Part shown: positions 3-42,190 of the stretch, one piece after another
How the letters are laid out: each line of letters starts with the position of its first letter
Position numbering within the stretch: position 1 is the first letter of the stretch
Source: an uncultured bacterium
Lineage (GTDB): Bacteria > Cyanobacteriota > Vampirovibrionia > Gastranaerophilales > Gastranaerophilaceae
DNA length: 64,000 nucleotides
Reading direction: 5' to 3'
Assembly (NCBI GenBank): GCA_949296245.1
Contig: CASFNW010000002.1
Coordinates: 48,454-112,453, forward strand
Notes under the pieces: generated by a model
Database searches by the model: none
Told to the model about the DNA's origin: nothing
What the model saw: the letters and a program-made list of their open reading frames with translations, nothing else
Translations under genes and position numbers: made by a program

Positions 3-2507
3 CAAGGAGGCGTACACACGCAGGTTTCTTTCAAGGGTTTTGCATTTGACGGTATAAAAAAGGCATTCAAACCTGTTGTAAAAGTTGTTCCTGATAATTT
101 GAAAAATAAAGTGTTTGATTCACTAATGCATATTAGTGATGTGCAATATAATACATATACAAAAATAAAAAATGAGTTTGTAAATTATGTTATTAAGCCA
201 GAAAATGCTGATTTTAGAACAAAAAACGGCATTGGTAATGATATTTTAAAGATTCTTAAAGACGGCAATGGAGAGAAACTGATTTACCTGCCAAAACAAA
301 CTATAGCCGCTAAATTTGTGAATCAGCTTCTGTCTCCTCTCAGAGCGTTATACCATTGGGGAGAAAAATTATTTTTATCTAAAGACTCGCCTGTTTTGAA
401 AAAAAGATATGAAAGAGACCGTATTTTAAAGAACTATGCTGCTTTAGAGGGATTATTTAAGTCCCATGAAATTTGGGAAAACGGCTACAGAAAAATGACA
501 GGTCATCCGAGGTTTAATGAGAGTAGTAATTTTTTAATACCTGACGATGTTTTATACAGCAAAATTAACAGAAGAAGAAATAAAGTAGTTGACCCCAATA
601 AGGGTAAATATTCTTCCAACTCTTTAATGATAGGTAACAGACTTATCTCAGGTATTGTTTATTCTTATTTTCTTGGTACAGACGCATACAATACAACAAT
701 GAGATATTCAAATGATAAAAATGAGGCTGTAAATCAAAGAAAATCACGTGTCGCGCAGGAATTTTCGAGAATCGGTATGAATATGTATATTCAGAATCTG
801 TTGTTCGGTACATTTGAAACAGCTGTTAACAGAAGTCTTTCTACAGCAATGTTTGTATCCGGTTCTACAGTTGCTTTTTCGGAAATTCTGGGAAGAAAAC
901 TTGTCGGAAAGCCAATAATGCCATCTAATAAAGAAAAGTTGGATAAAATGGAGCAGGAAATGGCTGAAAAGAAAGGGGTGCTTGCTTCAATAGGCAGACT
1001 TTTAACAAGCGTTAAGAAAAAAGATTCTCCAACTGCTTTACAATCTGCGTCTTTAAGTACTTTTTATAATAAAACACGTGCGAACCAAGAACTATTTTCT
1101 TCTTTTGCTGCAAAACAGCAACCAGATGCTCAATTACAGAATAGTTCTTCCGTTTTGCCGTCATTCAAGGGAGCTTTAAATTTAAATGCATTGTCTAAAG
1201 CGGAAAATTTTATAGACAAAGAAAAAGTTTCTTACCTGTTAAAAATTTTGGAAAATACTGATTCTAAAACCGCCTCAACTGTCAAAGAAACTATAATGAA
1301 ATCAGTAAGGAAATCTGATTATATAAAATCACAAAAAATTGTAATTCCGGAAAATATCGATGACTTGATGGCATCGTCAGAGATAGACAAAATTCCTCTC
1401 GGAAAAAAAGATACAATAGCTGGAAAATTTATAACAAGCATTTTGGTGCCGGTCAGATTTGTTAATAATCTATATAAATCGACAGTAAAGCTTATTAAAA
1501 CAATATATTATACAATTTCTAACAAAAAAGATAACTCTCTATATGATGAGCTAAATGAACTCAAACAAGGTATGAATTTAACTGATATAAATAAAATTGA
1601 TGATGAATTTAATAAGTTAAAATTGTCCTGGAAAAAAGAAAAATTTGATGGTAATAAATTGCCTAACGAAGAAAATATGCGTAATTTTATAAGACTTGAA
1701 AAATTTATAAAATTTTATAAAGACAGACTTAAGCTAGAGGCCTGGGACAAATCACCTTATTCAGCAGAAGAAAAACTCTTAAAAATATTTGCAGAATTTA
1801 AGAGTATAAAAAATAAGAATAAAGAAGACATACAGGGTGTAAAAAATATCCTGCTCTGGTTTGATAAACATTTGCAAAGAGAAGGCATAACTCCGGATAA
1901 AAACGGTAAGCTTACTGAAAAACAAATACAAAAAGCAAAAGAAATCCTTATGGAATCGGTAATGAAAGCTGATGGTGAAAAGCAGCTTGAATATGACGGG
2001 AATATACTGGCACAAACAAATATAAATCTCTCACGAGCTATTACAACATTATTCTTGATTACAGATTCATATAATCTTACTATGCAGTACAGTAATGACA
2101 ATAAAAAAGATGCAAGCAAGAGTGCTAAAAATCGTGCAGCTCAGGAAATTTCCAGAATTAGCGTTTCTGCTTATATAATGGCTTTTGTTCACAATCTTCT
2201 TTCAAAATTGTGCAACTCAAGCCTGACAGGTGCATTTACACTTACGGCGTTAACGTCTTCTATTAATGACTCGATTTCAAGAGAAGTTGTCGGTGTACCG
2301 TTAACCGCAAAAACTCAGCAGGAGCTGGAAGAAATTGATAAGAAAAATCAAATGTCTAAAAGTCCTATAAAAAAAGCTCTTGCTTATTCAATAGGCAAAA
2401 AATCAGCACTGCCGTCTTCATCATTAACAAAAACAAAAGCTTCAGTAAACAATGTGAAAACTGATTATATCAGCAATGACTTTTTTATAAATCCTGAAAT
2501 TAATTAA
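3..2507 (+). CDS. Large hypothetical membrane-associated protein, probably 5'-partial, built from two tandem copies of a ~350-400 aa module
   Basis: The ORF track start (99) is a TTG with no SD, and the same frame is open from nt 3 (QGGVHTQVSFKGFAFDG...). Module 1 (IYLPKQTIAAKFVNQLLSPL ... YSYFLGTDAYNTTMRYSNDKNEAVNQRKSRVAQEFSRIG) is mirrored by module 2 (IPLGKKDTIAGKFITSILVPV ... LFLITDSYNLTMQYSNDNKKDASKSAKNRAAQEISRIS). I recognise no family. Confidence 0.7.
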   Translation, partial: QGGVHTQVSFKGFAFDGIKKAFKPVVKVVPDNLKNKVFDSLMHISDVQYNTYTKIKNEFVNYVIKPENADFRTKNGIGNDILKILKDGNGEKLIYLPKQTIAAKFVNQLLSPLRALYHWGEKLFLSKDSPVLKKRYERDRILKNYAALEGLFKSHEIWENGYRKMTGHPRFNESSNFLIPDDVLYSKINRRRNKVVDPNKGKYSSNSLMIGNRLISGIVYSYFLGTDAYNTTMRYSNDKNEAVNQRKSRVAQEFSRIGMNMYIQNLLFGTFETAVNRSLSTAMFVSGSTVAFSEILGRKLVGKPIMPSNKEKLDKMEQEMAEKKGVLASIGRLLTSVKKKDSPTALQSASLSTFYNKTRANQELFSSFAAKQQPDAQLQNSSSVLPSFKGALNLNALSKAENFIDKEKVSYLLKILENTDSKTASTVKETIMKSVRKSDYIKSQKIVIPENIDDLMASSEIDKIPLGKKDTIAGKFITSILVPVRFVNNLYKSTVKLIKTIYYTISNKKDNSLYDELNELKQGMNLTDINKIDDEFNKLKLSWKKEKFDGNKLPNEENMRNFIRLEKFIKFYKDRLKLEAWDKSPYSAEEKLLKIFAEFKSIKNKNKEDIQGVKNILLWFDKHLQREGITPDKNGKLTEKQIQKAKEILMESVMKADGEKQLEYDGNILAQTNINLSRAITTLFLITDSYNLTMQYSNDNKKDASKSAKNRAAQEISRISVSAYIMAFVHNLLSKLCNSSLTGAFTLTALTSSINDSISREVVGVPLTAKTQQELEEIDKKNQMSKSPIKKALAYSIGKKSALPSSSLTKTKASVNNVKTDYISNDFFINPEIN

Positions 2508-3497: not shown

Positions 3498-3978
3498 ATT
3501 GACAAGACCTGTAATTGACACTAAGAACAGTCAGAGACATTTGTATAATCAGTATAATTATCAAAATTCTCAAAATCCGATAAATCCGGTTATTGATGGT
3601 TATTTCCCGACTCATAAAACTTATAAAGAGATGGCTATTGCCAGGGTTAATAAGACTCTATGTGCAATACTTGTATTTTTTATTCTGCTTTCTGCAGTAA
3701 GTTATTATTTTGTTACGGCAAGCGAAATTACTCTGAACAAGTATAGAAAGCAGGTTTTGTCTTTAAATGATGAAAATGTAGAGCTGCAAAATAAACTTGA
3801 TTATCTTAAGTCATATTATAATGTTGATAAGGCTATGCAAAAGCAGCATTTGCTTCAAAAGGCTAAAAATGTTATAGAGGTTAAGAGTGCGCCTGCAGCA
3901 GCTCCTGTTAAAAATACTTCAGCTGCTAAAATTGCACAGTCATCTCAAAAACCTTTTCAATGGTCAATAGGCTTTTAA
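3466..3978 (+). CDS. ftsL: FtsL-like cell-division protein (single TM plus coiled coil)
   Basis: Sits directly after rsmH. Has one TM (LCAILVFFILLSAVSYYFV) followed by a coiled coil (LNDENVELQNKLDYLKSYY). The start is uncertain: ATG 3466 overlaps rsmH, and TTG 3499 (GGAG 7 nt upstream) or ATG 3631 are alternatives. Confidence 0.6.
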   Translation: MQKKFRHGRTKLTRPVIDTKNSQRHLYNQYNYQNSQNPINPVIDGYFPTHKTYKEMAIARVNKTLCAILVFFILLSAVSYYFVTASEITLNKYRKQVLSLNDENVELQNKLDYLKSYYNVDKAMQKQHLLQKAKNVIEVKSAPAAAPVKNTSAAKIAQSSQKPFQWSIGF

Positions 3979-3995
3979 ATTCAAGGTTTTTTATG

Positions 3996-4224
3996 ATGTC
4001 TCAGGCGGCCTCGCTTGTAGGAGTGTACACGGAGTGCAAATGACGCCACCAGGTAGGGGCATAACATCAGGCTTCGCTCTAGCTCAGCCGATGTTGCAGC
4101 CAGTCTAGCATTTTACGGAAGTGATCCCATGCACTTGTTGGCTGTGCCGGACTTATTTTTTAACAACGAACTTGTTTATTGCACAGGTTCAACAAGTAGT
4201 AGGAGTCAGTTGACGATATGAAAT
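3996..4224 (+). repeat. GC-rich modular intergenic element, copy A (compact scaffold form)
   Basis: Visibly GC-rich island in an AT-rich intergenic region. Shares four blocks with copy B: ATGTCT(C/G)AG 5' box; CTTGTAGGAGTG(G)TACAC; a 49-nt block at 4106-4154 that matches 13573-13621 at 47/49; AACTTGTTTATTG.ACAGGTTCA.CAAG; and the 3' block GGAGTCAGTTGACGATATGAAAT. Confidence 0.85.
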
Positions 4225-4547
4225 ATAAAAAATATAATGAGGAAATAAATAAACTTAGTAATGAAATTTCCCAAAAAGGTGATATCTGGGAGTTGTATTA
4301 CCAGAGAGGGTATTTGTATTTTTTAAATGATGAAGATGAAAAAGCAAAAGATGACTATAAACACGCAGTCAGCTTGGGACTCAATTTTATAGAAATACCA
4401 TATTACACTTTTTCAAATTCTAACAGCAAAAGAAGAGATTTTTTGCTTCCTGAAAAAATAATGGTATTTCTTGTTTTATTGATGGTTTTGGTGGCAATTT
4501 TCTTTCAGTCTGCTTCTTTTATTGCAAAAATTAAAGGTGTTTTATAA
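4218..4547 (+). CDS. Small hypothetical protein, TPR-like N-terminus with C-terminal TM anchor
   Basis: 109 aa. YYQRGYLYFLNDEDEKAKDDYKHAVSLG resembles a single TPR. C-terminal hydrophobic helix IMVFLVLLMVLVAIFF. Its ATG and the upstream AGGAG lie inside the conserved 3' block of repeat copy A. Confidence 0.6.
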   Translation: MKYKKYNEEINKLSNEISQKGDIWELYYQRGYLYFLNDEDEKAKDDYKHAVSLGLNFIEIPYYTFSNSNSKRRDFLLPEKIMVFLVLLMVLVAIFFQSASFIAKIKGVL

Positions 4548-8917: not shown

Positions 8918-11900
8918 TTATTCTATCCAGCGGAAGTTTTTTACATATTTATCTTCATCAATTTTACCGTCAATTTTTACTGTAAATACTCTGTATTGCT
9001 GGTCGCTTAATTCAACACCGGGTATTTTATTCAGGTCTTGAATAATTTTAGCCTTATCTTCGTTTCCGAGCTTAAAACCGGGAATTTTGGAAAACAGTGT
9101 ATTAAATGAAAGATTGCCAATCTTGCCGAGAAGATTTGTTGCATGTTTAGTCAGCCTTCCGTATACTCTCATATTTGCATATTGTTGAAGTATATCGAAT
9201 TCACCGTTAATATAAATATTGAGGTTATTGCCTTTAGAGTATACTTCTATATTTTGAGCAACTCCGTTTTTTACAGTAAAGCTGCCTTTTATCGAATCAA
9301 AATATCCTGTTTTAATCGGAGCAATAAGGTCTAAAAAGTTACTGATACTTGCACCGGTAATGCCGCTTTTTATAAAATTGCCGGCTCTTAAGAGATATTC
9401 CACAGACCCGAGTTTTGGCATTTTTCCGTCAGCAATTTCAAAATAAACGTATCCGAACATATTTCTCAAACGTTCTTCTTCTGTATTGCCGCTTGTTGTT
9501 ATTGTTATATTTCCGTTTGCATTACCGAAAATCTGATCTTTAAATTCAAACATTGCAGAGGCAACTTTATTTGAATCCACATTTAAAGCGGTGACATTAG
9601 CTTTGATTTTTCCCGTAGAAAAGTCATATAATGCGCTGCCAGACATTTGTCCTGTCGTAACGTCAAAAGCAAGACGTTCCATGTTCAATAACATATCGTC
9701 TTTTAGTGAAAATTTTGCTTCATAATTACTTGCATTCAAATTCCTTATAGTTACATCTGATGCTTTCATTTTGCCTTTTTTAATACGAAAATCAGAAATA
9801 TTAAGAGGCAGAGCTGTTTGTGATTTATTGTTATCCACAAGCCTTACTGTTGTATCCGGTGTGGGTATTCTGGTTAAGGAATCGATAAATGCATCAATAT
9901 TCAGTTTGTTGGATTCCATATCCAGATTGTTTATTACAATCGGAGGTCTCAGATTGTTTTTCAACTCCGCAGATATTACAAAGTCTGAGTCAAGAACCGT
10001 TCCGTTTGTTTTAAGTTCTATTATTTTATTTTTGAAATTGAGAGAAATATCTTTTATAACAGTATCGTATAAAGGCATATCAAGATTGTCCATATATACG
10101 CTTCCTGTAACTTGCGGATATTTGATATCTCCTTTTATATTTAAATTACAGCTGAATTGGCCGTTTTTTAATACAGATTTTTTAAATATAATATTGAATA
10201 TTTTTGCATTTGCTTTATTTAGTGTTTTTACATTAAGATTTCTGATAAAAATATTTTGTTTTTTTAGCTGTATTATGCCGTTGGCCGTAAGAACCGTTAA
10301 CGGGTATGAGCGGGTATTTTGTGATGTCATGTATCTTATGTATTTAAAATTTTTCAGGTAATAAATATTGTTGTCCGCAATATTTATATCTGCATATAAT
10401 TCTCTGGCTTCATTTTCATCACCAAGATTTGCACCCATATAATATATATCTGACTCCGGTGCTAATTTTAATTTTGGCTGAAGTCTGATATTCTGCGCAT
10501 TTCCGCTTATATCGGCGGTTACTGTTATATCCCCTTTGGGTTTTATCGGGTATGTTAATCTGCTGTTAATATACTTGTTTACAAAGTTTTCGTTTATCTT
10601 TGCCGTTAAATATCCGTTTATCTTTGCTGTTTTATCCAAATCCCATACTGATAAATTTAAAAATACAGGTGTATTATCAACCTTAGCAATTATAGACCTA
10701 AGAGATGCTCTTTTACCTTCCAGCAGAATTTTTCCGCTATCGATTGTGACAGGGGTTTTGAAATAGCTGTGGTTAAATTGTATATCTTTTAAATCTATAT
10801 ACCCGTTTAGATTATTGTGCTTGCAGTCTATCAGTATGTTGGCAGTTCCGTCATAGTTTTCGTATGCATTGAGCAATTTATAAAGCGGCTGCGGCAGAAT
10901 CTGAAGAGTTTTTATTTTATTCAATGCGTTGATATTAAAATCAGAAACTTTTAAGTGTCCGTCAATCCTGTATGATTTGGAAAAGAAATTGTGTACTGTC
11001 CCTCTTGCATTAATCTGTGCACCGTAAAATTTTGCATTAAAATTGTTAAATGCCAGATTTCCTCTGTTTATTTCAAAATTTCCGGAGGAAATTATAAAAT
11101 CAGATTCTTTTTGATTAATTGGTGAAAAATAGCCTGTAGCGGACAAATTTTTTAAATCAAAATTATCGTTACTTGATTTATATCTTCCGTTAAATGTTAT
11201 ATAGGAATTTGTTTTGGGCAGGGATAATGTTTTTTCTTCACTGCTTAAAAGAATAAAAGGAATCAGCTCATCTGTTTTTAATTTATTTGCATTGATTTTT
11301 AAATCCGTTTTGCCGTTATTGCAGCCTCCCTGTATGTATATCGGCGAGGTACCTGTCAATCCGTTCAGCACAGCATGCCAGTTTGTATCATCAAAGTTTA
11401 TTTTTCCTTTCAAGTTCTGTGCATATACCGGTATATATTTTAATTTCCCTTTTATCCCTTTTAAGTCAATGACACCTGATATTTTGAAAGTGGGATTCTC
11501 TGCAATTTTGCTGAAATCTTTTACTATACCTTTGATTTTGATATCTGCTTTTACTTTACCGGATACAGATTCAACAGGATTAACCATAAATTTTTTGTTA
11601 TCTAAAATAACACTTGTTGTAAGAATATGGAACAAGTCAGAGATTTCTATATTTTCCGCGTCTACATCAAAATCGATATGTCCGTCGAGATTGGCTTTAC
11701 CGTCTATTTTTACGGGCTGATGCTTTATATAAGCTGAATTTGTATAAAAATGCATATTTTTGTGGTCAAATACAAGAGCGCCATTGGCGTTTTCTATTTC
11801 TGTATTCAACCCTTCAAGAGTTGCGTATGTATTTCGGAAGTTAAACTGACCGATAACATCACCGTCAAGTATTGTGCCTTTTGTTCTTATATCTATGTCG

Positions 11901-13390
11901 CCCTTGCCTTTTATGTCCATATAAGGAACCGGCCCCAAATCAAAGCCTATAACTTCATGTACCGGTACAAGCATATATTCGGCAGTGGATAAATCTACAT
12001 TTTTCGAGGATACAATATGAAAATCACCTGCACCGTAGAATTTCATTTCTGCAATGCCTTCTACGTCTACATACTCACCATGTCCGGCAAATACACGTGT
12101 TTTTACTTTTACATTGTCTTTTAAAAATTCAGCAAAGACTTTACAATGAGGGACAAGCGGATTGTCCTTCACTATATACACATCTTCTGCATTCAAATTT
12201 CCGTATATTTCAGGTTTTAATAAGCTTCCTTTTATTTGAAGATTGCCCTGTGCTTTGCCCCAGGCTCCGTACTTTTTAAATTTTTGCATTACATCAAACG
12301 GGTCATCTTTAATTGAAGGCACAAGCCAGTACATTGAATGAATATCTGATTTGGGGATATTTACAGACAAATCGGCTTTGGGATTTGATGACGTGTAATC
12401 TTTTATACTTCCGGAGAGATTTATCCGCCAGTCTTTTGCGTTTATTTTTGTATCGGTTATTTTAAGAGATTTTTTATCAAAGGAAAGTATAGAATCAATG
12501 TAAATAGTGCTGTTTGCACGGATATTATCAAGAGGATTTTTCATATTTATTGAAAAATCTGTTATTGCAGCGTCGGCTTTTATGGCATTACCACTGGAAT
12601 TAGCATTATGTGCATTTGTTTTAATATTTATAATCCCGCCGGATGATACAATGTCTTTATTTGCAAAAAATGCAAGGTATCCGGAAAAATCCGATAAATC
12701 AATATTTTCTATGTTGCAAAGACACCTTAAATCATTTTGTCTGAGACCGTGTTCTAACGGTAATTTTGAAGAAAAATCAATATTAACAGATGATTTTTGC
12801 TTGCCATTGACTAATATCTCTGAAATTATTTTTGCGGATACTTTTTTGTTCTTTTTGTAAGAAATATCAGCATTTACAATCCGGCTGTCGAGTTGTTTGT
12901 TTATAAGTTCATCTTTTAAAATAAAATCAGAGTTTGATATATGAAATGAATTTATATCTGCGTCTATTTTTTGTTTTGTATCTAAATTTAAAGGCAAGTG
13001 CCCGAGGTAAAACTTCTTATCTTTTTTTCTTGTTAATATAAACTTCAAATCATTCGCCGCTGCTGATTTTACCGTGATTTTTTTTAACAATAAAGAGGGT
13101 AAAAATAAAGAAATATCCGCATTTTTTGCACAAAGTATACTATTGTTATTTCTGTCTTTTAAAGAGATATTTTCAGCAAAAATTTTTATGCTGAGAGAAG
13201 GAGACATTTCTATTGCTGCACTCTTATAGGAGAGTTTAAAACCCGTTTTTTGTTCAACAGCAGCACTCAGCCTGTCTGTTTGCAGCAGTGAATTTAATTG
13301 TGCGGGCACAATCCATAAATACAATATTATGATTCCTGCTAACACAACCGGAAACATTATTAAAGAAATTTTTAGAATTTTTATATTCAT
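8918..13390 (-). CDS. AsmA/TamB-like giant envelope protein (N-terminal TM anchor, long beta-rich body)
   Basis: 1490 aa. Single N-terminal TM (ISLIMFPVVLAGIIILYLWIV), then a long repetitive beta-strand-rich sequence typical of AsmA-like/TamB lipid-transport proteins. Divergent from an Skp/OmpH gene. The family call rests on architecture and context only. Confidence 0.65.
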   Translation of the reverse strand: MNIKILKISLIMFPVVLAGIIILYLWIVPAQLNSLLQTDRLSAAVEQKTGFKLSYKSAAIEMSPSLSIKIFAENISLKDRNNNSILCAKNADISLFLPSLLLKKITVKSAAANDLKFILTRKKDKKFYLGHLPLNLDTKQKIDADINSFHISNSDFILKDELINKQLDSRIVNADISYKKNKKVSAKIISEILVNGKQKSSVNIDFSSKLPLEHGLRQNDLRCLCNIENIDLSDFSGYLAFFANKDIVSSGGIINIKTNAHNANSSGNAIKADAAITDFSINMKNPLDNIRANSTIYIDSILSFDKKSLKITDTKINAKDWRINLSGSIKDYTSSNPKADLSVNIPKSDIHSMYWLVPSIKDDPFDVMQKFKKYGAWGKAQGNLQIKGSLLKPEIYGNLNAEDVYIVKDNPLVPHCKVFAEFLKDNVKVKTRVFAGHGEYVDVEGIAEMKFYGAGDFHIVSSKNVDLSTAEYMLVPVHEVIGFDLGPVPYMDIKGKGDIDIRTKGTILDGDVIGQFNFRNTYATLEGLNTEIENANGALVFDHKNMHFYTNSAYIKHQPVKIDGKANLDGHIDFDVDAENIEISDLFHILTTSVILDNKKFMVNPVESVSGKVKADIKIKGIVKDFSKIAENPTFKISGVIDLKGIKGKLKYIPVYAQNLKGKINFDDTNWHAVLNGLTGTSPIYIQGGCNNGKTDLKINANKLKTDELIPFILLSSEEKTLSLPKTNSYITFNGRYKSSNDNFDLKNLSATGYFSPINQKESDFIISSGNFEINRGNLAFNNFNAKFYGAQINARGTVHNFFSKSYRIDGHLKVSDFNINALNKIKTLQILPQPLYKLLNAYENYDGTANILIDCKHNNLNGYIDLKDIQFNHSYFKTPVTIDSGKILLEGKRASLRSIIAKVDNTPVFLNLSVWDLDKTAKINGYLTAKINENFVNKYINSRLTYPIKPKGDITVTADISGNAQNIRLQPKLKLAPESDIYYMGANLGDENEARELYADINIADNNIYYLKNFKYIRYMTSQNTRSYPLTVLTANGIIQLKKQNIFIRNLNVKTLNKANAKIFNIIFKKSVLKNGQFSCNLNIKGDIKYPQVTGSVYMDNLDMPLYDTVIKDISLNFKNKIIELKTNGTVLDSDFVISAELKNNLRPPIVINNLDMESNKLNIDAFIDSLTRIPTPDTTVRLVDNNKSQTALPLNISDFRIKKGKMKASDVTIRNLNASNYEAKFSLKDDMLLNMERLAFDVTTGQMSGSALYDFSTGKIKANVTALNVDSNKVASAMFEFKDQIFGNANGNITITTSGNTEEERLRNMFGYVYFEIADGKMPKLGSVEYLLRAGNFIKSGITGASISNFLDLIAPIKTGYFDSIKGSFTVKNGVAQNIEVYSKGNNLNIYINGEFDILQQYANMRVYGRLTKHATNLLGKIGNLSFNTLFSKIPGFKLGNEDKAKIIQDLNKIPGVELSDQQYRVFTVKIDGKIDEDKYVKNFRWIE

Positions 13391-13448: not shown

Positions 13449-13477
13449 TTGTCTTTACATATAATTATTGATAAAAT
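13449..13477 (+). promoter_or_regulatory. Candidate sigma70-type promoter (TTGTCT-17-TAAAAT) firing into repeat copy B
   Basis: TTGTCT at 13449-13454, a 17-nt spacer, then TAAAAT at 13472-13477. The predicted start falls on the conserved ATGTCTGAG 5' box of the element. Copy A has TATGAT (3992-3997) and copy C has TAGAAT at the same relative position. Confidence 0.45.
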
Positions 13478-13792
13478 GTCTGAGTGGGATTTCACTTGTA
13501 GGAGTGGTACACACTCTGCCGAGGAAATATGCCAGTGGCATATTTGCGAGAGGTAGCAAGTGGCGCCGAGTTTAGCATTCTACGGAAGTGACCCCATGCA
13601 CTTGTTGGCTGTGCCGGACTTGTTGTTAAATATTAAACTTGTTTATTGTACAGGTTCATCAAGCGGATTTTCGGACGGGTGAAACCCGGGGGGCGAGGAC
13701 ATTGAGCCGGCTTGTGCAAAGCACAAAAGGCGAAACTGTCCGAGCGTGAAGAAAATCCAAGACGTAGTCGGAGTCAGTTGACGATATGAAAT
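13476..13792 (+). repeat. GC-rich modular intergenic element, copy B (scaffold plus ~110-nt inserted domain)
   Basis: Same four blocks as copy A. It also carries a domain inserted between block 3 and the 3' block. That domain is closed by GGATTTTC (13665-13672) / GAAAATCC (13751-13758) and contains the hairpin ACGGGTGAAACCCG, which is also present in copy D. Confidence 0.85.
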
Positions 13793-13835
13793 TTATTAAA
13801 TTAACAGGCTTATTTTTAGTATAGAGGAATTATTT

Positions 13836-14321
13836 ATGAAAAAATTAAAAGCATTATTTATAGCAGCTGCAGCAATGTTTCTTATCGGAGCAGGGAATAA
13901 TATTTCTTCTGTAGCACAGGCGCAGACTATCGGTTATGTGAACTATAAAACAGTGGAATCAAACTATGAATATGCAAAACAGGCATATAAAGAAATTGAT
14001 ACAAAATATCTGGAATTGCAGCAGTATTTGATGGATAAGGAAAAACAATATAAAAATATTGATTCTCCTATAAATAAAAAGAACTTTGAAGAGCAGGTTC
14101 AAAAAGATTTCAAACTTAAAAATGATGAGTTTGATAAATTTAAACTGAAAAAAGCACAGGAAGTAGAAGGTAATATCCTGCAGGCAACAAAAGCAGTTGC
14201 TGCTGACAAAAAAATTGATGTTGTGCTGGATTACAGAGTGATTTTTACAGGCGGTGTCGATATATCACAGGATGTAATTAATTACCTTAATTCACCATCA
14301 TTTAAACCTGCGAAAAAATAG
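13836..14321 (+). CDS. skp: Periplasmic chaperone Skp/OmpH family
   Basis: 161 aa. Signal peptide ending ..SVAQAQ, then IGYVNYKTV start and a Lys/Glu/Gln-rich coiled-coil body typical of OmpH/Skp. Divergent from the TamB-like gene. Confidence 0.8.
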   Translation: MKKLKALFIAAAAMFLIGAGNNISSVAQAQTIGYVNYKTVESNYEYAKQAYKEIDTKYLELQQYLMDKEKQYKNIDSPINKKNFEEQVQKDFKLKNDEFDKFKLKKAQEVEGNILQATKAVAADKKIDVVLDYRVIFTGGVDISQDVINYLNSPSFKPAKK

Positions 14322-15715: not shown

Positions 15716-15726
15716 TTCTTGCAAAA

Positions 15727-15935
15727 AAGCTGGCACACTCAAAATAGGGAGCAGCAGTCGTGCTCTTACAAAATGCTGCGGTGTCTGATTTCAAGCGAAT
15801 TTTGAACGAGTGGAGTCGAATGACGAGAGCCAACGCCCCTTGTGGCGCAGGACGTGACCCCGGTAGAATGTCTGATTTCAAGATGTCCGACGGCAACTGA
15901 GATACGCAGATTAGATTAAAAAGTTGCCGTTTTGC
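15727..15935 (+). repeat. GC-rich modular intergenic element, copy C (rearranged variant)
   Basis: Contains a 14-nt direct repeat TGTCTGATTTCAAG (15782-15795 and 15869-15882). Also has a block-4-like GGAGTCGAATGACGA, a CTTGTGG box, GTGACCCC, and a 3' block CGGCAACTG.GA.AC..AGATTAGAT shared with copy D. It ends in hairpin CGGCAACT (15891-15898) / AGTTGCCG (15922-15929) followed by TTTT. Confidence 0.75.
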
Positions 15936-16017
15936 AATAAAAATAAAAATTTTAGCAACTTTTAAAGATAACTTGCGTTTATTTATATATATAGGAAAGT
16001 GTAATTAAGGTTAAAGC

Positions 16018-17259
16018 ATGGCAATAATATTCAATGCAGCAAAAACTGTTCTTTGTAAAGCAAGCTCAAAAGGGGCTTCTCTTTTAAGAAAAGACATTGG
16101 TCTGGACATTTCAAAAGCAGCAAAAGACGGACTAAAAATTCCACAGGAGGCTGCATCTTTTGATGCGGTGAGAGTTGGAAGAAATTTTAATCCGGATGAA
16201 TGCTATACTGATATTTTTACTTTTCGTAATAAATCAGGTGAGGTTATTGAACAATTTATAAAAGAAGTCAATGGTAACGACATTAAAACCACAAAAAAAT
16301 GGTATGAAAAACTGTTTCCCTGGGAAAAAGATCTTGATGATTTTGGTGAAAAAGTTTTGAGTATTCCGGCAACAAAAGTCCGTTCTTATACTAGAGAAAA
16401 CGGAAAAATATCTCAAATAACAGAAGATGTTTTTGCTGTGACAGAGACAGAAAAGCCAATAGTTACACATTCTAAAAAAACTATTATGCCTGTATATGAT
16501 GATACCTACAAAAGAACAAATAATGAGTCATTTTTATTAGAGCAGAGACAAAATGGAAAATCTGCCAGATTTATAAAAAATGAATACGAAGTAGACCGAT
16601 ATGCAAATGGTAGTTTCAATCTAAACAAATCAGAGGTTTCCTCTCCGGAATTAAAAGAAATTGCAGAAAATTCTTATCTATTACCGTTTGTAAGCAATAA
16701 TAACAAATTTGCCTATAGAATGGCACAGGCAAATATTGAAGATGCATGTTTTATAGCTCCTCCTGAAATCAAATTATACAAAGAAAAATCCCAAAGGTTA
16801 GGATATTATTCCAGTTCAAATGAAGTTAATATAAATCTTAAAAACTCAAGAGATTTAAATGCACCTAGAAGTACCCTGACTAATACAATAGGACATGAAG
16901 TGGGGCACGCAAAATGGGATGAGAAATGTCTTCAATACGATATGTATAAAAATGGACTTATGGATGCAGACGAATTTTTTGCTATGAATTCAAAGTCAGA
17001 TATATCTTTGATAAAACGCTATCAGTATGCAATTGATAATTATGTACCTGCGAAAGTAAATAATGTTCTCTATCAAAATAATTTTGCAGAAGTTACAGCC
17101 AGAAAAGAAGGACGCAAATCTGTTAGAAAACTTTCGAAATTGCAGGAAAATCTGGATGAAGCTTTTCCTTATCAACACGGTTTTCAATTTAACAGACCAA
17201 ATGGTAAAGAAGATGATTTAGCCGATTTGATAACATTAATGGACAGCTGGACTAAATAG
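16018..17259 (+). CDS. Hypothetical protein with HExxH zinc-metalloprotease motif
   Basis: 413 aa. TNTIGHEVGHAKWDE (HExxH) with a candidate third ligand about 65 aa downstream (NNFAEVTAR). No signal peptide seen and no recognised family. Confidence 0.55.
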   Translation: MAIIFNAAKTVLCKASSKGASLLRKDIGLDISKAAKDGLKIPQEAASFDAVRVGRNFNPDECYTDIFTFRNKSGEVIEQFIKEVNGNDIKTTKKWYEKLFPWEKDLDDFGEKVLSIPATKVRSYTRENGKISQITEDVFAVTETEKPIVTHSKKTIMPVYDDTYKRTNNESFLLEQRQNGKSARFIKNEYEVDRYANGSFNLNKSEVSSPELKEIAENSYLLPFVSNNNKFAYRMAQANIEDACFIAPPEIKLYKEKSQRLGYYSSSNEVNINLKNSRDLNAPRSTLTNTIGHEVGHAKWDEKCLQYDMYKNGLMDADEFFAMNSKSDISLIKRYQYAIDNYVPAKVNNVLYQNNFAEVTARKEGRKSVRKLSKLQENLDEAFPYQHGFQFNRPNGKEDDLADLITLMDSWTK

Positions 17260-17380
17260 TTAGTTTAAGAAAAATTCAGGTAAGCTTTCCTGCCACATTT
17301 GTATTAAATATCTGTTTGTATTACCATGTTGGCATAATTTAGAATAGAGTTATGGTATTGAAAAGGAGGATATTTTAACT

Positions 17381-41780: not shown

Positions 41781-41865
41781 ATATCATATACTCCTATACT
41801 TTTTGACAATTATATTCTATATTCCACTAATTTGCAAAAATAAATCTTGCTTTACTTTATTTTAC

Positions 41866-42116
41866 ATCTAATCTAGTGTCGCAGTTGCCGCCGGCTGTCT
41901 TGTAATTCCTTCCCGCTCGTTGCTGCCGCTGACTACGCTTCGCTGCCGTCAGCTTCGCACTCGCTCAACGGGTTTCACCCGTCCGGAATTCCGCTCAACG
42001 CAGCCGGCACCTGCTCACCTTTTCAAATGACACTCAAAAATTTTGCTCTTCCCATCCATTTTGACTTGACATTTAGTCAACTCAAAACGGAGTCCTTCTT
42101 ATCGCAAAATTTTCTC
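41866..42116 (-). repeat. GC-rich modular intergenic element, copy D (minus orientation, upstream of the pilin-like pair)
   Basis: Read on the minus strand, it carries the same inserted domain as copy B: GGAATTCC-GGACGGGTGAAACCCG ... GGAATTAC-AAGAC. It has an extra outer helix GCCGGCTG (41890-41897) / CAGCCGGC (42001-42008) and the 3' block CGGCAACTGCGACACTAGATTAGAT shared with copy C. The TTGTCCGAGAAAA box lies at its 5' edge (42104-42116). Confidence 0.8.
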
Positions 42117-42190
42117 GGACAATATAAGGCAATTATTTTAAACAAAATGTTTTTATATATATAAGGTAGTAATGTAAGGTCAATATACTT

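Follow-up and report, generated by a model that had tools for sequence, protein, structure and literature searches.

A probable gene-less mobile element of a previously undescribed family in the skp promoter of an uncultured Gastranaerophilales bacterium

The window analysed here is a 64,000-nt stretch of DNA from an uncultured bacterium of the Gastranaerophilaceae (assembly GCA_949296245.1, contig CASFNW010000002.1, positions 48,454 to 112,453). A 445-nt gap separates a 1490-aa open reading frame (ORF) of the DUF748/YhdP type (tamB-like; 8918–13390, minus strand) from an OmpH/Skp ORF (13836–14321), and most of this gap is taken up by a GC-rich island (13491–13784) with a GC content of 0.50, compared with 0.35 across the window. 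An earlier reading of this DNA, made without database searches (the sequence-only reading), had noted the island, placed it at the start of the skp transcript and described it as a structured leader with an inserted, covarying domain that belonged to no RNA class it could name. The locus raises the question of whether the island is a leader that belongs to skp or a sequence that arrived there from elsewhere. Our analysis indicates that the island is very probably a copy, referred to as element B, of a non-autonomous and gene-less mobile DNA element belonging to a previously undescribed family. The parts of the locus are as follows.

13449–13477, plus strand: native skp promoter, with the -35 hexamer TTGTCT at 13449–13454, a 17-nt spacer and the -10 hexamer TAAAAT at 13472–13477 (from a promoter scan and hexamer scoring).
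13477–13792, plus strand: element B, a 316-nt copy of the family-1 repeat, 5'-TGTCTGAG...ATATGAAAT-3', following the TAAAA of the -10 box (ends from the family alignment, a filled/empty pair and the sister-species empty site).
13513–13555, plus strand: module i, consisting of ACTCTGCCGA, a 10-bp hairpin (AAATATGCCA/TGGCATATTT) and then GAGAGGTA (from presence and absence among copies).
13590–13662, plus strand: near-invariant 3' core block, GACCCCATGCACTTGTTGGCTGTGCCGGACTT...ACTTGTTTATTGYACAGGTTCAWCAA (from copy alignments, including one of 58 copies).
13663–13763, plus strand: module iv, a 101-nt three-way junction between CAAG and TAGTCGG, with helices Pa (GGATTTTC/GAAAATCC), Pb (CGGGT/ACCCG) and Pc (GGACA...TGTCC, with GCC/GGC and TTGTGC/GCACAA).
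13764–13792, plus strand: conserved 3' terminus, GTAGTCGGAGTCAGTTGACGATATGAAAT, with the palindrome AGTCA-GT-TGAC, a TTGACN hexamer and GGAG...ATG.

The skp promoter and its inserted repeat

Orthologous loci of sister species were obtained via homologues of the flanking proteins. The order of the tamB-like, skp and pyrimidine-nucleoside-phosphorylase genes is shared with species whose Skp is 80–86% identical, and there the tamB-like/skp spacer measures 117–132 nt and contains no element. Alignment of the spacers showed conservation as far as ...TTCACTTGTCTTTACATAYAATTATTGMTAAAAT, from which point the sister sequences lead directly on to skp, while in the window the element begins exactly after TAAAA. 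Because the spacer carrying it is conserved in these element-free species, the TTGTCT-TAAAAT sequence is the native promoter of skp. The sequence-only reading was therefore right about the promoter, but the element begins at T13477, one base to the right of the 13476 it had given; the 3' end it gave, 13792, was exact. The final T of the -10 box is also base 1 of element B, so that the insertion split the native -10 box between A and T and rebuilt TAAAAT with its own first base.

The ends of the element were fixed by two assemblies of one species that differ by a single copy and whose flanks are 99% identical (gathered loci are cited here by their L numbers). The filled site, L086, reads ...GCAATAAA, then the element from TGTCTGAG to ATATGAAAT, then ATACGAC...; the empty site, L028, reads ...GCAATAAAATACGAC..., parsed as GCAATAAA^ATACGAC. 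A single parse fits this pair: the element extends from the T of TGTCTGAG to the T of GAAAT, with zero duplicated bases. Models with a target-site duplication or a shared core (AAA, AAT or AAAT) fail on the same pair and were rejected, and the sister-species empty sites for B and for two further copies in the window, A and D, are consistent with the lack of a duplication. Neither repeat search nor inspection of the alignment detected terminal inverted repeats; apart from CTGA, the 5' end (TGTCTGAGGCGG) has nothing in common with the 3' end read as its reverse complement (ATTTCATATCGTCAACTGAC).

3997–4224, plus strand: copy A, a 228-nt family-1 copy without module iv, following the ATGA (3993–3996) of the native start codon of a TPR-like gene.
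41867–42121, minus strand: copy D, a 255-nt family-2 copy, 5'-TGTCCGAG...CACTAGATTAGA-3', with a boundary that is ambiguous by an AT dinucleotide and module iv at 41897–41994.

Element B matches copy A in two segments (13454–13663 with 3974–4196, and 13758–13801 with 4190–4233), and a 49-nt block, TAGCATTCTACGG...CCGGACTT, differs between them at two positions, as the 47/49 identity reported earlier implied. At the copy A site, the spacer between the ftsL-like and the TPR-like gene is 3–16 nt long in the sister species. Codon 2 of the TPR-like gene is broken by copy A; a short dead ORF now starts at the native ATG (3993–3995), and the terminal GGAG...ATGAAAT of the element supplies its own ATG at 4218, which gives an in-frame start (MKYKKYNEE). 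Copy D, whose 3' end can also be written TAGATTAGA(T)-3', sits after ...AATAT and is absent from the orthologous site of the sister species. The sister species share a promoter of the pilin operon, TTGCAA-17-TATAAT, which in the window (41781–41866, minus strand) lies downstream of copy D; this places copy D outside the leader of that operon. Judged by these sequence comparisons, copies B, A and D are lineage-specific insertions, being absent from the syntenic loci of the sister species.

Family 1 was then delimited by its other copies. When one genome per GTDB species was scanned for exact patterns, 32 loci were detected, all of them in metagenome-assembled genomes (MAGs) of Candidatus Gastranaerophilales, which represented five species. 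At least 20 copies were located in MAG E09__bin203 (GCA_944324245.1), whose Skp is identical to that of the window; the other four MAG species were BRZ_PB__bin5, BRZ_DG__bin19, BRZ_AN__bin36 and BRZ_QD__bin22. A metagenome scan yielded 48 loci, of which two were chance matches and 46 were true, and about 45 copies belonged to a single genome at approximately 50x coverage in assembly ERZ1643251. When the gathered loci (about 0.77 Mb) were searched with a profile, 112 hit groups were obtained, with both ends present in 59. Screens of plasmid and phage collections gave no similarity to the element, and in viral-contig scans the core 21-mer had no match and the hairpin 17-mer matched two unrelated terminators. 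As far as seen, the family is restricted to a clade of Candidatus Gastranaerophilales, and literature searches on repeats and non-coding RNAs (ncRNAs) of Gastranaerophilales and Melainabacteria yielded nothing relevant to it.

The copies share sharp ends, 5'-TGTCTGAG and GGAGTCAGTTGACNATATGAAAT-3', around a modular body that brings the total to 135–330 nt. The final 110 nt or so are nearly invariant, an invariance that the search patterns used to find the copies produced in part, and the 5' half is variable. Within element B, the core block contains the motif ACTTGTT four times (three direct, one inverted), and the 3' terminus is invariant in more than 80 copies. Head-to-tail copies were observed, as were internally deleted copies of 33–80 nt that retain both termini, including the conserved 3' one, and solo or 5'-truncated 3' ends. 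Similarity among copies is slightly higher within a genome (0.91–0.92) than between genomes (0.87). Several MAG contigs, including those of E09, break inside the element, which is the usual sign of a repeat that exceeds the k-mer of the assembler.

Target sites

The genes adjoining the copies are unrelated housekeeping genes; for about 30 copies a nearby downstream gene runs in the same direction, whereas 26 copies point towards a convergent gene. Across 63 distinct flanks, the five bases preceding the element read W-A-W-A-W, with A at the second position in 79% and C or G nearly absent, and together with the first T of the element this pentamer reads as a -10-like hexamer. Insertion sites proven by an empty counterpart were TAAAA^, ATAAA^, TATGA^ and AATAT^. 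These data indicate that the element inserts in one orientation, directly 3' of A/T-rich, -10-like pentamers.

The junction hexamer matched TATAAT with a mean score of 3.9 in copies that run in the direction of a gene just downstream and of 3.1 in opposed copies (Mann-Whitney p = 0.009), compared with 2.6 for background T-ending hexamers from the same flanks, a scoring made noisy by some mis-picked 5' boundaries. The data fit either a preference for real promoters or a mere preference for A/T-rich TAWAW sequences. At the other end, the terminal TTGACN could be imagined as the -35 hexamer of an outward promoter, but it showed no -10 enrichment at 16–18-nt spacing (3.05, compared with 3.02 for the control) and is thus not systematically an outward -35.

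Optional modules and the fold of module iv

The family body is a mosaic in which optional blocks occupy fixed places. Module i occurs at two different sites in the family (13513–13555 in the window, and in L015, L027 and L033), each time replacing GRAGT. By eye only, its CUCUGCCGA-stem-UGAGAGG arrangement, with tandem G-A/A-G beside a 3–4-nt bulge, resembles a kink-turn. Other optional blocks are a 55-nt block after CGCTTGTA, a 52-nt block in copy A and one of about 75 nt between CATGCAC and TTGTTGCC.

Module iv is the insert to which the sequence-only reading had drawn attention. The perfect 8-bp inverted repeat that closes it (13665–13672/13751–13758) was found as described, and the insert measures 101 nt instead of the approximately 110 nt proposed. 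Its presence in copy D also held: the arms there are GGAATTCC/GGAATTAC, the hairpin CGGGTGAAACCCG is identical and copy D has a GCTGAC/GTCAGC hairpin of its own; GGACGGGTGAAACCC occurs twice in the window, where 0.06 occurrences are expected. Assemblies that encode an identical Skp protein differ in module iv: the window and two other assemblies have it in element B and three do not, and the converse applies to copy A, which lacks it in the window and carries it in E09. It was detected in three different host elements; it occurs in family-2 elements (D and L036) as well, and twice in L027 in other settings.

The B-type, L034-type and D-type versions of module iv each fold independently into the same three-way junction. 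Covariation was scored on an alignment of nine variants with a hand-drawn structure, which amounts to only about four to five independent sequence lineages; here 93% of cells pair, and 8 of 29 pairs, spread over four separate helices, changed on both sides. The two compensatory changes noted earlier in the closing stem are among these eight. The covariation score was 0.243, compared with 0.09 or less when the partners were slid, and 0 of 500 shuffles reached the observed value. The fold of module iv is clearly under selection, its helices being kept by compensatory changes, and it is not repeat debris, as had been argued from two copies.

The same cannot be extended to the core. RNAalifold returned a long-range helix and a GAACTTG/CAGGTTC hairpin with zero double changes, and column mutual information in the 58-copy alignment was dominated by subfamily-linked changes instead of base pairs; we therefore claim no core fold. 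Both strands of copy B fold better than shuffled sequences (z of about -3), and the plus strand is much the more stable, at -106 compared with -83 kcal/mol for the minus strand.

Strains with identical Skp have near-identical flanks, while their elements differ in patches, and these patches match other copies. Considering this mosaic, we infer that modules pass from copy to copy mainly through ectopic gene conversion between the many paralogues.

Two observations concern module iv in L027. Positions 1–2600 of this locus form an ORF-poor 2.5-kb region with module-iv units at 343–533 (plus strand) and 1148–1293 (minus strand) in addition to a family-1 copy. In the unit on the minus strand, a long helix closes the module and encloses module i; an intrinsic terminator follows, and this unit resembles a stand-alone small RNA (sRNA) gene.

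Mobilisation, rival explanations and known elements

Several results weigh against the view that element B is a mobile element. No transposase, recombinase or reverse transcriptase (RT) was located next to any copy in the gathered loci. All-against-all BLASTP of the locus ORFs revealed no recurrent neighbour, the only recurring ORFs being those that run through the repeat itself and a VWA/LprI family, and tblastn with TnpA and TnpB had no match in the approximately 0.77 Mb around the copies, a weak test. The flank motif is too degenerate for a target defined by base pairing as in IS200/IS605 elements. Judging from the promoter position, the whole of element B would now be part of the skp transcript, as a structured 5' leader of 316 nt, and conservation of the core could partly stem from a function at the level of the host and not from recent spread. 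Finally, the mosaic patterns do not tell gene conversion apart from independent mobility of the modules. Set against the exact ends, the empty sites and the dispersal of the copies, these points leave the mobile-element reading very probable.

How such an element would move can be proposed only tentatively. Transposition would be catalysed in trans by an enzyme that makes no staggered cuts, the likeliest candidate being a single-strand (HUH/Y1-type) or site-specific recombinase pathway that acts on a folded single strand; such a pathway would account for the conservation of a strand-specific fold. The end sequences may rebuild host expression signals by chance or by selection, and this mimicry at both ends would make insertions at the 5' ends of genes tolerable to the host. 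In its full form, which we regard as doubtful, the proposal is a yet-undescribed transposition system that reads a folded single strand (DNA or RNA) and integrates without duplication into -10-like promoter sequences, perhaps where the non-template strand lies melted in open complexes. On this view, evolution would have fitted the element to restore the -10 box on its 5' side and to offer a Shine-Dalgarno (SD) sequence and ATG on its 3' side, and its swappable domains, the three-way junction of module iv among them, would serve as working pieces of an RNA, such as one that guides the enzyme or acts as its scaffold.

A different emphasis would treat the family as functional RNAs encoded many times over, either sRNAs that act in trans or a scaffold that binds protein, each transcribed from the -10 box at its own 5' junction, with mobility secondary and the modules acting as RNA domains. 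The enrichment of -10-like hexamers at the 5' junction, the placement of modules at predicted loops or junctions, the more stable plus-strand fold with its many G-U pairs and the sRNA-like unit of L027, with its closing helix and terminator, would all suit such a family. However, family-1 copies lack a terminator, about 45% of copies aim at the end of a convergent gene, many are decayed, 5'-truncated or miniature, the core has only subfamily-linked changes and no base-pair covariation, and the -10 hexamer is supplied by the flank and not by the element. We consider this account improbable.

Similarly slim is the chance that the family consists of palindrome-associated transposable elements (PATEs) of an IS200/IS605-type insertion sequence, in which the conserved 3' half would combine the right end with an omega-RNA scaffold for TnpB or IscB encoded elsewhere in the genome. 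Gene-less, PATE-like copies of ISGst are known (PMC10055086), and like those PATEs the family is short, non-coding and multicopy, has no inverted repeats or duplication, is inserted in a fixed orientation, its left end directly following a short motif, and has structured ends and a conserved, strand-specific fold, its conserved structured 3' half stopping exactly at the element boundary. In IS200/IS605 elements, however, single-base changes in the left-end flank motif abolish activity, and the target-adjacent motif (TAM) is strict (PMC10055086). PATEs have a strict 4–5-nt TAM, whereas the W-A-W-A-W motif of the family is degenerate (TAAAA, ATAAA, TATGA, AATAT and others), and this variation is why the family was not filed under IS200/IS605. 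Its right end is GAAAT, with no related transposon-encoded motif (TEM), paired hairpins at the left and right ends were not seen, its body consists of swappable modules, the weak TnpA/TnpB search was empty, and there was no Rfam match to HEARO or IS605-associated RNAs.

It is very unlikely that the family is a retroelement resembling short interspersed nuclear elements (SINEs), with an RT that would recognise the conserved 3' half and copy the RNA into nicked, A/T-rich targets. The A/T-rich targets, the strand-specific fold and the truncation pattern (the 3' end always intact, several copies truncated at the 5' end and none at the 3' end) would be expected of it, but the loci were gathered with 3'-half patterns, which biases that count. 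There is moreover no target-site duplication, no A-tail and no RT gene in view, and the retroelement route is disfavoured because a transcript started from the junction -10 would lose its first six or so nucleotides, which all full copies keep exactly as TGTCTG.

The reading with which this locus began, a dedicated cis-regulatory leader (riboswitch, attenuator or thermosensor) of skp and outer-membrane biogenesis genes with the 101-nt insert as an added sensor, drew on the position exactly between a conserved promoter and skp, the strong fold and the insert covariation, but it is largely refuted by its absence at orthologous loci and is now scarcely tenable, as the sister species have a short leader of about 25–50 nt without the element, the same element lies in about 100 occurrences in the gathered loci beside dozens of unrelated genes in both orientations and is polymorphic between 99%-identical genomes, the insert is optional among strains with identical Skp, and no Rfam family matches. 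The same grounds speak against a locus-specific regulatory RNA of tamB.

Searches for known RNAs were in keeping with the earlier statement that the island fits no known class. Rfam 15 at gathering thresholds gave no match in the whole window, its E-value mode (E up to 10) gave only chance matches (SNORD78 and miRNA models on the terminator hairpin) with B, D and the L027 unit, and no tRNA or tmRNA was found in the window. The ends were also compared with those of hammerheads and of group I/II introns, and both readings were rejected, since the order of 5' GUC and 3' GAAA is wrong, there is no stem I and Rfam had no match. The family has features of miniature inverted-repeat transposable elements (MITEs), being 135–330 nt long, non-coding, present in about 100 copies in the gathered loci and polymorphic between strains and species; a classical MITE, that is, a derivative of a DDE transposon, was rejected for want of terminal inverted repeats and a target-site duplication. 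The sequence-only reading had set its RNA against a MITE- or REP-type repeat: in kind the family is such a repeat, but it had not itself been described.

BOX elements of Streptococcus pneumoniae and the ERIC (or IRU) sequences of enterobacteria are intergenic, often co-transcribed repeats that form stable RNA folds and have no transposase of their own. BOX has the modular structure boxA-boxB(n)-boxC, ERIC variants contain internal inserts at fixed sites, and the ends of both are complementary or inverted, with ERIC duplicating TA. The Gastranaerophilales family resembles them in being intergenic, modular, stably folded and transposase-less, and differs in that it is unrelated in sequence, has asymmetric ends, makes no duplication, rebuilds a -10 box and supplies an SD sequence and ATG.

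Small dispersed repeats of cyanobacteria, with units of 21–27 nt and nested mini-elements, were reportedly described by Elhai et al. in 2008. REPINs (PMC3116915) are REP doublets served by RAYT transposases. These mini-elements and REPINs share with the family, whose host lineage is sister to Cyanobacteria, nesting inside repeats, structure maintained by compensatory change and mobility in trans or of unknown mode; the family differs in its modules of 40–100 nt, including a three-way junction, and in the 135–330-nt carrier with defined ends that holds them. The large GC-rich ncRNAs in Rfam (OLE, GOLLD, ROOL and HEARO among others) are likewise GC-rich, strongly folded islands in an AT-rich genome, but the family has no Rfam match and exhibits insertion polymorphism. 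The family belongs with the small, non-autonomous mobile repeats, alongside PATEs, BOX, ERIC and the cyanobacterial mini-elements, and it differs from these in a combination of features: asymmetric ends, no duplication, insertion at -10-like sequences with restoration of the signal, and a modular body under structural constraint.

A puzzling GC-rich "leader" is in this way explained as a mobile element, and for a repeat family of uncultured gut Gastranaerophilales the ends are now exactly defined, together with an empty site and a preferred kind of target. The family is unusual among small bacterial repeats, having neither inverted ends nor a duplication, entering promoters and start codons yet restoring their signals, and carrying optional structured modules of which at least one is under clear structural selection. 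Such elements fragment MAG assemblies, create long structured 5' untranslated regions on essential envelope genes and could pass for riboswitches or ncRNAs in screens of GC-rich islands. If the mobilising enzyme is new, it would represent a target-selective, duplication-free integration system.

Related repeats were also observed. Family 2, 5'-TGTCCGAGAAAA...GGCAACTGCGACACTAGATTAGA-3', comprises copies D and C in the window and copies in L019, L025 and L036, and has in common with family 1 the type of 5' octamer, modules i and iv and a block resembling module v. Its second copy in the window is decayed.

15770–15915, plus strand: copy C, degenerate and family-2-like, with a decayed module iv at 15795–15884 (approximate coordinates; nhmmer E = 0.0045 against D).

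The covariance model of module iv did not detect copy C. Further families start with TGTCTGAGGC/GG and have different bodies (for example TGTCTGAGGCTGTTTTAACAGCCGAGTTG...); they were seen at L014 (minus strand, about 6544), L028 (minus strand, about 3424) and L083 (9991), and in a second group at L078 (minus strand, about 1682) and L083 (6249), the minus-strand coordinates being approximate. This suggests a superfamily with a common 5' terminus. Solo fragments of 16–40 nt that end in CAGTTGACTATATRA lie just past the stop codons of unrelated genes (L068, L058, L059, L079 and L085, at several sites), and may be what is left of deleted copies, or else a palindromic site with a function of its own, AGTCA-GT-TGACT.

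Copy C lies in a segment that was swapped between strains. Between the genes for pyrimidine-nucleoside phosphorylase and pyruvate:ferredoxin oxidoreductase, the window (15716–17380) contains copy C and a 413-aa ORF with an HEVGH motif (16018–17259), and the corresponding segment of the E09 MAG (L003, 4881–6450) contains two small membrane-protein ORFs that flank a family-1 copy.

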